Assembly: GCA_039908535.1 (NCBI GenBank)
Contig: JAMOAW010000027.1
Span: forward strand, 10,705-74,704
Source: Magnetococcus sp. DMHC-6
Lineage (GTDB): Bacteria > Pseudomonadota > Magnetococcia > Magnetococcales > JADFZT01
Direction of reading: 5' to 3'
DNA: 64,000 nt
The translations under genes were made by a program, and so were the position numbers. The notes below the pieces were generated by a model. That model worked only from the letters and a program-made list of their open reading frames with translations. It had not been told where the DNA came from and ran no database searches. This document shows positions 15,126 through 17,627 of the stretch, in pieces. Positions within the stretch are counted from its first letter, which is position 1. Each line of letters begins with the position of its first letter.

Positions 15126-17627
15126 ATGTCACTTTTCATTAACACCAATTTGGCCTCGTTGAATGCTCAAAGACATTTATCGGGAACAACGAATAAGTTA
15201 GGTCAGACCTTCGCGCGGCTATCTTCGGGATTGCGTATCAATACAGCTGGAGACGATGCGGCTGGATTGGCCATCAGTAACCGGATGACCGCCCAGATTC
15301 GTGGTTTGACCACCGCGATTCGCAATGCCAATGATGGTATTTCTGTCTCGCAAGTGGCTGAAGGTGCTCTGGATGAGACCTCTAATATGATACAGCGGAT
15401 TCATGAACTCTCGGTCCAGGCGGCCAACGCCACCAATAGTGATGAGGACCGGGCCAGTCTGCAACAGGAGGTGTCGCAACTGCTCTCTGAGATTGATCGG
15501 GTGGCTCAGGAGACGGAGTTTAATAATTGGCCTATGTTGAATGGTCAGACCAAGCCGCTGGTATTTCAGGTGGGTGCTAAAGAAGATCAGACCATTTTGG
15601 TGCAACTGGCCGATGCTAGGGCCGAAGTTTTGATGACACAGACGGTATTGGCCGATCCTAACAGCCCAGAGAGTGTCAATAATGCCAAAATTAAGGGGAT
15701 GACGATCAAGGCCCCAAATCCGGCTCTGCCTGGTTCCAAGTTGTTTAGCTCCGGTGTGGCTTCCGTTATTGCCGCCTATGCCAATGCCAAAATTAAAGAA
15801 TCGGCCCCGGCTACTACAAAGGCGGCAGATGTGGCCAAAAGTGGTATTGAAGCTGTGAAGGGCAATCCGGCCTCTTTGGCGGTTGTTGAAAACGCGGTTT
15901 TAGCTGTAAATAGGGGAACTCCCGCTGCAGGGGATCATGCCAGTGCCATTATTAAGGCGGTGGACGGAGCTGGGACAATCGCCAATGTGGTGGATGTGGC
16001 GGTAGCTGCCGTTGCTGGCAACGCTGCAGCGGTTACAGCGGCCGATGCTGGGGTGAGCAATGGGCATGATGCTTCTATTATCGCGGATGCCATTGTTCAG
16101 GCAGATGGGACGATCACGAAAAAGAATGCCAAAATAATTGCCGCTGCTGCTTTGGCTGCGGGTGCCCCTGGTGGAAGTGTGACCAATGCGCGTAACGCCG
16201 CTACGGGGGCGGCCATTACCAACGACGACTCTAGCATTCGCAGTGATCAAGCGGAAGTGATTGCCGCCGGGGCGTTTGCGGCGGGTCAGAGTTCTTCTTA
16301 CGATGAAATTATCACGGCCATTGAAGGCTCTGAGGTGACTTCTGTTGCTGGGGTGGGTGCTAAGGTGACTGCTGCTGGTGTCAATGATCTCCTGAAAGAT
16401 GAAGTGACTACCGCCATTATGGCTGGTGTGACGAATGGGGATGACATTGATACTATTGCCGCTGCCGCAGTGGCTAAAGATACTTCGGAAGAACTGACCT
16501 TAGACGAAGCTCGGTTAATTGCTTTCTTCGTCAAGACTCCTGTTGTGTACAATGCAGTGTTTAAGACTAAAGTCGGCACCGAAGAACGGCTTGATGTGAT
16601 TAAGGCCATATATGCAGGGGTGACGCAAGGGGATTCCGTTGATGTGATTGCCACAGCGGCAATGGTTGCTGATTCTGGACATAATTTAACCATAGACGAT
16701 GCCAGGGTGATTGCTGCCGCTGGATTGGCTGAGGCCAAGAGTGGTGACGCGGGCATAGGTGCGAATGGGTCGATCTCTTTGGCTGCCAAGGAGGTTCCGA
16801 CGAAGAGCAAGGTGGTCAATGCCATTACCGACTCTGCGGCTGCTGCGGATGTTGTCGAGGATGGGGTGATTGCGGGTGGGGTGAAGGATGTTCCAGTTGG
16901 CAATATTATTGATGTGATCAAATCTTTTCAGTCTGTCATCAATATGGGGGGAGATATTGATAGCATTGCTGAGGCGGCGGTAAAAGCGGATAAGGGGGGG
17001 CATTTAACACTCTCTTTGGCCAAAGTGATAGCGGCGGCTGGGCAGGTGGCTTCTGGTGCCGTGGCTTCGGCGGCCACGACTGCGTCGGCGGCGGCAGCGG
17101 CTAAGGATATGGCCACGGTTCTGGATGCGCGGGATGTTGCCGTGACGTATGCGTCAACGGTTGCGGCCAAGCCGATTCCTGGGGATTTTGTCACGGTGCC
17201 GAGTTGGTTGATCAATACCTCTGGGAGCAACACTTTTCCGCCAACTCCCTATATTGACATCACCGGGAAGACGATTCCCACCGATCCGACCTTACCGTTT
17301 GATCCGCCTACTACGGATGATTCTAATCCTCCGCTTTCTGGGCAGGCGGCGGCGGGACGGATGTTGGATGTGCTGGTGAGAGCGTTGGATCGGGTCTCTT
17401 CGACGCGGGCCGAATTGGGTGCGATTCAAAATCGTTTTGAGTCCAATATTTCCAATCTTTCTAATGTGGTGGAGAATGTTTCGGCGGCACGTTCGCGGAT
17501 TATGGATGCCGATGTTGCCGATGAGACAGCCAATTTGACCAAAATGTCGATTATTCAGCAGGCGGCTACGGCGGTTTTAGCTCAGGCCAATCAACAGCCG
17601 CAACTGGCCTTGCAACTGCTGAAATAG
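15126..17627 (+). CDS. fliC: Giant flagellin (833 aa) with ~590-aa Ala/Val-rich central insert
   Basis: Canonical flagellin N-terminal domains (aa 1-~150) and C-terminal domains (aa ~745-833: [12 protein letters not shown]...[31 protein letters not shown]) flank a long insert containing degenerate ~40-aa repeats. Confidence 0.9.

Follow-up and report, generated by a model that had tools for sequence, protein, structure and literature searches.

A large flagellin of the Magnetococcales with a predicted all-helical, partly repetitive outer domain

Is a very long insert between the two conserved ends of a flagellin a genuine folded domain, and what could it do for the filament? The question is raised by a locus in a 64,000-nucleotide (nt) stretch of DNA from Magnetococcus sp. 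DMHC-6 (contig JAMOAW010000027.1; hereafter the window), where the longest open reading frame (ORF) of its region encodes a protein of 84 kDa with an isoelectric point of 4.7 and no cysteine. An initial annotation had taken this protein for a flagellin with conserved termini, and Pfam indeed places flagellin domains at both ends: Flagellin_N (PF00669) matches residues 5-141 (E 9e-41, 139.6 bits against a cut-off of 26.6) and Flagellin_C (PF00700) residues 749-832 (E 2e-24, 86.1 bits against a cut-off of 23). The top NCBIfam matches are flagellin models only (250-282 bits), and the D0/D1 core is 58-61% identical, over aligned positions, to the three short flagellins encoded in the window. An identity as FlgL was rejected, as the FlgL model reaches 92.5 bits against a cut-off of 127 and the cluster has an flgL gene of its own. 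The gene is an intact flagellin gene. When its product is aligned with the short flagellins, everything from about residue 200 to about residue 750 appears as an insertion of ~550-600 residues at the usual position of the outer domain. At 833 residues the protein stays below the threshold of >1000 residues published for giant flagellins (PMC6248924), the label it had first been given, and is better called large (>800 residues). The earlier impression that it holds no recognizable enzyme motif was borne out, since it contains no HExxH zinc-protease motif (the hallmark sought for a flagellinolysin) and Pfam and NCBIfam recognized no known enzyme family in it.

The structure of the insert was then predicted with AlphaFold2, using models that rest on a shallow alignment of 17 family sequences. 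Modelled alone, residues 200-700 gave a mean predicted local distance difference test score (pLDDT) of 87.5 and a predicted template-modelling score of 0.85, with 26 helices of ~8-29 residues (most of them 10-16) joined by short loops. In the full-length model, which has an overall pLDDT of 67, most of the 10-residue blocks between residues ~230 and ~680 lie at 75-94 and D0/D1 at 30-55; low values for D0/D1 are often seen when a monomeric flagellin is modelled from a shallow alignment. The outer region would be joined to the core through a small neck, in which strand 193-195 pairs with strand 688-690 in the full-length model. The return segment that follows (residues 691-745) is modelled without secondary structure at a pLDDT of 27-39, despite the many residues in it that are invariant across the family (P692, W694, P705, P706, P708, D711, G714, P718, D720, P721, F725, N734 and P735), and it includes the Pro/Thr-rich segment already noticed before the C-terminal domain (residues 705-736, nt 17238-17333). 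The insert is as rich in alanine, valine, glycine and threonine as had been described (A 21%, V 11%, G 8%, T 8%), but the accompanying description of it as low-complexity sequence does not agree with the well-folded domain that AlphaFold2 predicts. We also considered an EF-hand- or dockerin-like calcium-binding reading of its G-x-D-[IV]-D loops and rejected it by inspection only, as the spacing is unfit and the residues resemble helix N-caps.

Selection on this region was assessed from nine pairs of orthologues by the Nei-Gojobori ratio of nonsynonymous to synonymous substitution rates (dN/dS), which was 0.06-0.27 for the insert, 0.03-0.21 for the neck and 0.02-0.08 for the core. The values for the insert therefore indicate a constrained functional domain: they rule out a hypervariable region under diversifying selection and, together with the AlphaFold2 model, low-complexity or disordered filler. 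On the models and these ratios, the outer region is a conserved, selected and predicted all-alpha domain.

The internal repetition of the insert exceeds chance. In a Smith-Waterman self-alignment the best off-diagonal score was 286, compared with 99 ± 17 (maximum 130) in 20 composition-preserving shuffles. A repeat hidden Markov model (HMM), seeded solely from the last copy (residues 574-642) across 17 homologues and blind to the other copies, matched residues 489-535 (independent E-value, i-E, 1.4e-15), 426-466 (7.5e-11), 277-345 (6e-4) and, marginally, 362-386 (0.78) in its first pass. After iteration it delineated four full copies and a partial one (Table 1), with a best value of 0.036 among 340 shuffled inserts. 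The pairwise identity of the copies is 32-50%, the unit measures ~63-69 residues with four predicted helices, and every HMM-defined copy coincides with four consecutive helices of the AlphaFold2 model.

The degenerate repeats of the initial annotation are accordingly real, above the shuffle controls of both self-alignment and HMM, and their description needs revision. The proposed period of ~40 residues is too short, and the earlier motif of ~35 residues forms the C-terminal half of the true unit. That motif fits 14-16 of its 18 fixed positions at residues 437, 501 and 607 and nine of 18 at residue 312 (maximum 12 in 1000 shuffles), and the three examples quoted for it were found at residues 433-468, 497-533 and 607-639 (nt 16422, 16614 and 16944), 9-12 nt from where they had been placed. 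Of the at least five copies proposed, four stand as full copies and the fifth (residues 362-386) is partial. To call the insert 'built from' repeats is an overstatement, because the detectable copies span only about half of it; the rest is also predicted to be helical and gives no profile match. Copy 3 falls in an alignment block specific to the window, and most aligned orthologues are without that segment. Self-BLASTP with standard statistics returned no off-diagonal match, and the repeats were recovered only by Smith-Waterman alignment with shuffles and by HMMs. At the DNA level, Tandem Repeats Finder detected no tandem repeat other than a trivial one of 9 nt within the C-terminal region, so that the duplications are old and no assembly artefact; recent duplication or assembly collapse was ruled out on this ground.

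Is the domain a known one? Searched alone, the insert matched no NCBIfam family and no Pfam family (one noise match of E 0.064, at a threshold of E <= 1). Among PDB sequences the best matches had an E of 0.34 for a whole-insert profile and 0.12 for a repeat-unit profile, none of them significant. A Foldseek comparison of the insert model with 350,542 PDB chains gave a best E of 0.36 and a TM-score of 0.15, and the insert therein resembled no known, non-repetitive flagellin outer-domain fold: no flagellin was among the matches, and the non-significant top ones were MATE transporters, fumarases and designed helical repeat proteins. The full-length model, searched against the PDB as an intended positive control for D0/D1, also retrieved no flagellin, because D0/D1 are poorly modelled (pLDDT 30-55), and the fold negative is therefore valid for the PDB and Foldseek only.

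To place the protein among its relatives, we collected orthologues from genomes and protein collections. A scan of one genome per species recovered 28 loci, all of them in Magnetococcales metagenome-assembled genomes (MAGs) or in 'Ca. Magnetaquicoccus inordinatus' UR-1, and the gene order flgK-flgL-fliW-[large flagellin]-fliW-short fliC-fliD is kept in 28 of 28. The orthologues are intact ORFs of 633-960 residues with one to six detectable repeat copies, a number that correlates with protein length (r = 0.86). The longest (960 residues, six detectable copies; 7889-10771 of its locus) belongs to the Magnetococcales MAG nWRX3bin10 and comes nearest to the 'giant' threshold. A search of a collection of 5.8 billion proteins with the insert yielded 16 proteins of 658-889 residues, all with flagellin termini, and every one with a named source is from the Magnetococcales; phmmer run without a filter on 1.84 billion cluster representatives, a library without taxon names, found only eight clusters. 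A repeat-unit profile had no match in the 5.8-billion-protein collection and missed its own family too, the 8000 word-sharing candidates having probably been swamped by alanine-rich proteins. The exact large flagellin is absent from that collection, in which its best match is 51% identical and the FliW proteins of the same MAG are present. Across these genomes and collections, the insert is restricted to the Magnetococcales, in what appears to be one branch with fixed synteny.

The surroundings of the gene (Table 1) suggest how it arose. As first described, a fliW gene in the flgKL cluster lies directly upstream, ending 37 nt before the start codon. The gene had also been placed at the end of the operon, which is not the case: a second fliW, a short fliC, fliD and two fliS genes come after it. 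The mechanical ORF of the second fliW begins at a TTG and has 63 extra N-terminal residues; its BLASTP similarity to the first FliW starts at residue 64, one before ATG 18020, and a start at this ATG leaves ~390 nt of intergenic DNA behind the large flagellin gene. Identity between the two FliW copies is 75%, a divergence similar to that of orthologues from different species, and the fliW-flagellin module was therefore probably duplicated before these lineages split; the first copy would afterwards have gained or expanded the helical domain. Further short flagellins are encoded at 7732-8577 and 8691-9536, and the three short ones of the window measure 276-281 residues.

Table 1. Coordinates of the large flagellin gene, the parts of its product and the flagellar genes around it
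Feature	Position (nt)	Strand	Basis and remarks
flgK	11119-12930	+	Pfam
flgL	12990-14507	+	Pfam, NCBIfam FlgL
fliW copy 1	14510..15088	+	Pfam FliW; product 100% identical to FliW of the DMHC-6 MAG; ends 37 nt before large flagellin gene
Large flagellin gene	15126..17627	+	833 residues, ATG start; ORF/translation, Pfam, NCBIfam
N-terminal D0/D1 helical region, residues 5-141	15138..15548	+	Pfam PF00669
End of N-terminal D1 and N-side neck, residues 142-199	15549..15722	+	Family alignment; invariant P178, N186, G191
Predicted all-alpha outer domain, residues 200-700, 26 predicted helices	15723..17225	+	AlphaFold2 insert-only model
Repeat copy 1, residues 277-345	15954..16160	+	HMM i-E 6e-4 first pass, 3e-11 iterated
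Repeat copy 2, partial (last helix pair only), residues 362-386	16209..16283	+	HMM i-E 0.78 first pass, 5e-7 iterated; weakest copy
Repeat copy 3, residues 411-466	16356..16523	+	HMM i-E 7.5e-11 first pass; 50% identical to copy 4
Repeat copy 4, residues 473-535	16542..16730	+	HMM i-E 1.4e-15 first pass
Repeat copy 5, residues 576-642	16851..17051	+	Most conserved copy of the family; invariant DVPVGN motif
Conserved Pro-rich return segment, residues 691-745	17196..17360	+	Family alignment
C-terminal D1/D0 helical region, residues 749-832	17370..17621	+	Pfam PF00700
fliW copy 2	17828..18505	+	Pfam FliW; probable true start ATG 18020
Short flagellin, 276 residues, no outer domain, partner of fliW copy 2	18603..19433	+	Pfam, alignment
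fliD	19755-21227	+	Pfam
Two fliS genes	21351-21752, 21767-22213	+	Pfam
csrA, 77 residues	40044..40277	-	Motif scan and ORF; adjoins flgN
flgN	40388-40903	-	Pfam

Comparison with the marine Magnetococcales sets the module apart. In MO-1, MC-1, IT-1 and PR-3 the cluster reads flgKL-fliW-fliC-flaG-fliD-fliS-fliS (PMC7175107), with the same order and the same upstream neighbour of the inositol-monophosphatase family as here, whereas the window and 28 other species add the fliW-large-flagellin module between flgL and fliW-fliC. The clusters of Magnetofaba australis IT-1 and Magnetococcus sp. PR-3 hold one fliW and one fliC of 272-277 residues, then flaG, and no large flagellin, and a single fliC has been reported in this cluster for MO-1 and MC-1 (PMC7175107). 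The window also differs in lacking a flaG ORF in the interval from the short fliC to fliD (19434-19754, where the longest ORF has 59 residues), the place at which IT-1 and PR-3 carry a FlaG gene of 101-126 residues. Downstream of fliD, the tandem fliS paralogues (133 and 148 residues) are followed by a coiled-coil ORF of 113 residues with a weak FliT-like match (E 0.12; 21351-22554 for the three genes), and the marine loci likewise have two fliS genes and an ORF of 113-121 residues without a family.

What, then, might the large flagellin do? We consider it fairly likely that it is a functional filament subunit of a freshwater-type member of the order and gives the filament a thick helical coat, to mechanical benefit. 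Its D0/D1 ends would bind FliS and FliW, pass through the type III flagellar export apparatus and polymerize under the FliD cap, and, judged by homology, export and polymerization would proceed as in other flagellins. The position of D2/D3 would be taken by the acidic, Ala/Val-rich all-alpha domain of ~500 residues, attached through the small conserved neck with its one beta-bridge and its conserved Pro-rich return strand. About half of this domain would consist of tandem ~65-residue four-helix modules derived from ancient internal duplication, in numbers that vary by species. On the filament the domain would form a thick helical outer layer whose extent is set by the number of repeats, and within the rapidly turning bundles of these cocci the filament would probably be thicker, stiffer or different in its interactions. 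Duplication of the fliW-flagellin module beside flgKL would have given rise to both the gene and the second fliW, the large flagellin being probably co-transcribed with flgK-flgL-fliW. A mechanical benefit is probable by analogy: thicker filaments are made by large and giant flagellins whose outer regions are duplicated (PMC6248924), and outer domains are reported to modulate filament mechanics and motility (PMC8931119, PMC11532411).

Several points weigh against this interpretation. The large flagellin and its orthologues are known from sequence alone, and MAGs or uncultured cells are all that is known of the organisms that bear the gene; for the mechanical role, analogy is the sole ground. 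The tertiary arrangement in the AlphaFold2 models depends on only 17 sequences, and alanine-rich sequence easily receives a confident helix prediction. In addition, the window alone encodes at least three short flagellins free of an outer domain, so that the large one may be a minor or local component and not the bulk of the filament.

A refinement of the coat reading that we regard as possible, if rather unlikely, is that the large flagellin is a spatially restricted subunit: it would form a short, thick, hook-proximal segment, laid down first because its synthesis coincides with that of the junction proteins FlgK and FlgL, and the short flagellins would build the rest. Ordered multi-flagellin filaments in Shewanella, Caulobacter and Helicobacter provide the analogy. 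The 37-nt gap after the first fliW, which contains a GGA-rich Shine-Dalgarno region and no promoter-like site, speaks for it, as do the comparably short gaps (mostly 13-73 nt by a rough heuristic) in the 27 other loci scanned; these gaps make co-transcription of the large flagellin with flgK-flgL-fliW likely. A sigma-28-type -10 box, GCCGATAA, at 17676, 48 nt past the stop codon of the large flagellin gene and before fliW2-fliC, would also count in its favour, and the same box recurs at 7486 (upstream of the flagellin at 7732) and at 19462 (upstream of fliD). However, the site as a whole (TAAAGTGGCATAATTTGCCGATAA at 17660-17683) combines a perfect sigma-28 -10 box with a TAAA -35 element only 12 nt away, compared with a canonical ~15 nt; the canonical TAAA-N14-16-GCCGATAA pattern gave a single match, at an unrelated site. 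The box after the gene is moreover conserved in none of the 27 other loci scanned and was therefore not relied on, and a sigma-28-type promoter between the large flagellin gene and fliW2 was dropped as evidence. Finally, at most a few tens of nt separate the large flagellin gene from the second fliW in the Magnetaquicoccus-like loci, so that the whole cluster may be one transcript.

A separate element of the flagellar bundle appears improbable. Here the large flagellin would form distinct filaments, or a coat, that space or lubricate neighbouring flagella, as the fibrils and sheath may do in marine MO-1, whose seven flagella and 24 fibrils of unknown composition lie inside a sheath (PMC7175107). 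Magnetococci do swim with tight multi-filament bundles, the gene occurs in lineages other than the marine strains examined, and a variable number of repeats would suit a spacer. In its most explicit form, which we hold to be just as improbable, freshwater-type Magnetococcales would have a distinct thick, alpha-helix-coated filament type, or a coat in the bundle, that functionally replaces the fibrils and sheath of MO-1, with the repeat number setting the inter-filament spacing or the bearing surface. Yet nothing connects the large flagellin with fibrils; for the fibril-bearing MO-1 and MC-1 only one fliC has been reported in this cluster (PMC7175107), and this, together with the absence of the gene from the two marine genomes of Magnetofaba australis and Magnetococcus PR-3, argues against a general role in fibrils or sheath, which the initial annotation had thought plausible beside one in the filament. 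Least probable of all, by a little, is a non-propulsive function on the filament or as a secreted product (an adhesin or ligand scaffold, a glycan carrier, or a secreted FliW-titrating regulator of CsrA), to which the helical repeat architecture would be suited, alpha-repeat proteins often binding partners, and with which the 14% Ser+Thr of the outer domain, a sugar-modification island just upstream (69-7033), the glycosylation of MO-1 flagellins and the presence of a dedicated FliW paralogue and of csrA would agree, but against which stand the lack of similarity to any binding or enzyme family in the Pfam, NCBIfam and PDB-sequence searches, the absence of HExxH and a D0/D1 core as constrained as that of structural flagellins (dN/dS 0.02-0.08), which a purely regulatory protein would not need.

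Returning to the coat-forming flagellin that we favour, how does it compare with known systems? With canonical flagellins (FliC/Hag; PF00669 and PF00700) it shares the D0/D1 termini, an insert between N- and C-terminal D1, an acidic, cysteine-free composition and a gene encoded with flgKL, fliW, fliD and fliS; the solved ones, however, have beta-rich D2/D3 or Ig-like outer domains, whereas its own is predicted to be all-alpha and is repetitive. The large and giant flagellins of the Oceanospirillales with tandem 'DE' regions (Thomson et al. 2018, PMC6248924) likewise show duplication of an outer unit, no enzyme domain and a stepwise series of sizes, but in them a whole DE domain is duplicated once, in contrast to a ~65-residue unit in up to six copies, and the giants exceed 1000 residues, compared with 833 here and 633-960 among the Magnetococcales orthologues. 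The insert is set apart from the DE regions of Oceanospirillales and Pseudomonas by description, no Pfam or NCBIfam model having matched. Also by description, it resembles the alpha-rich outer-domain clusters #7, #29 and #115 of an AlphaFold survey (PMC11532411), which are mainly alpha-helical by prediction and have no experimental structure; that survey makes no mention of Magnetococcales. Alpha-solenoid families (TPR, SEL1, HEAT, ARM and designed repeats) are similarly made of tandem helix-turn-helix modules, and the non-significant Foldseek matches include designed helical repeats and a toroid, to which the full-length model adds Tom70 and a SEL1-like protein. No solenoid family profile matched, though, the fold matches stay at E >= 0.25 and TM <= 0.15, and the unit here packs four helices into ~65 residues.

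Lineage-specific outer domains, alpha-rich ones among them, and enlargement by tandem outer units are already known (PMC11532411, PMC6248924). What is new is the particular family, with its ~65-residue four-helix module in variable copies, its restriction to one Magnetococcales branch and its own FliW paralogue; the literature on Magnetococcales, as far as it could be searched, does not mention it, and Pfam, NCBIfam and the PDB show no sign of it. The novelty is an outer-domain family in a well-known protein, the system itself being of a known kind, and the concept of how flagella work is unchanged by it. Flagellin outer domains are a large and mostly unexplored reservoir of folds: the 2024 survey distinguished 682 structural clusters, and no alpha-rich one had an experimental structure (PMC11532411). 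The present family is a clear case: it combines a confident all-alpha prediction and a variable modular repeat with strong purifying selection and an unvarying genomic place beside a FliW paralogue of its own, in organisms noted for swimming extremely fast and for their unusual flagellar bundles. Should the protein sit in the filament, cryo-electron microscopy of an alpha-helical flagellar coat would have a good target in it, and it would permit a test of how outer-domain size tunes mechanics, the 960-residue nWRX3bin10 orthologue being the best candidate for seeing a thick filament; if, improbably, it coats the bundle, it would hint at how tight multi-flagellar bundles rotate without jamming.

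The window holds further genes of flagellar interest. A second flagellar cluster on the reverse strand (40044-46148) comprises flgF/flgG-type rod genes (45339-46148 and 44499-45308), flgI (41705-42946), flgN and csrA. CsrA is the expected partner of FliW, and the components of the FliW-CsrA partner switch are all encoded in the window; the csrA gene sits by flgN and not by either fliW. The switch may act on the large-flagellin mRNA. Upstream of the flagellin genes, the sugar-modification island includes a glycosyltransferase-like gene (69-914), a methyltransferase (1063-2190), a DegT-family aminotransferase on the reverse strand (2346-3491), alpha- and beta-like subunits of a thiamine pyrophosphate-dependent E1 dehydrogenase (3929-5987) and an NAD-dependent epimerase/dehydratase (6005-7033). 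Flagellin glycosylation is a plausible role for the island, because the flagellins of MO-1 are reported to be glycosylated (PMC7175107). Signalling genes are dense beside the flagellar ones, with a gene for a 904-residue methyl-accepting chemotaxis protein on the reverse strand (23137-25851) and three hybrid histidine kinase/response-regulator genes at 31278-39831 (825, 724 and 1160 residues), the last of which has an Hpt domain.

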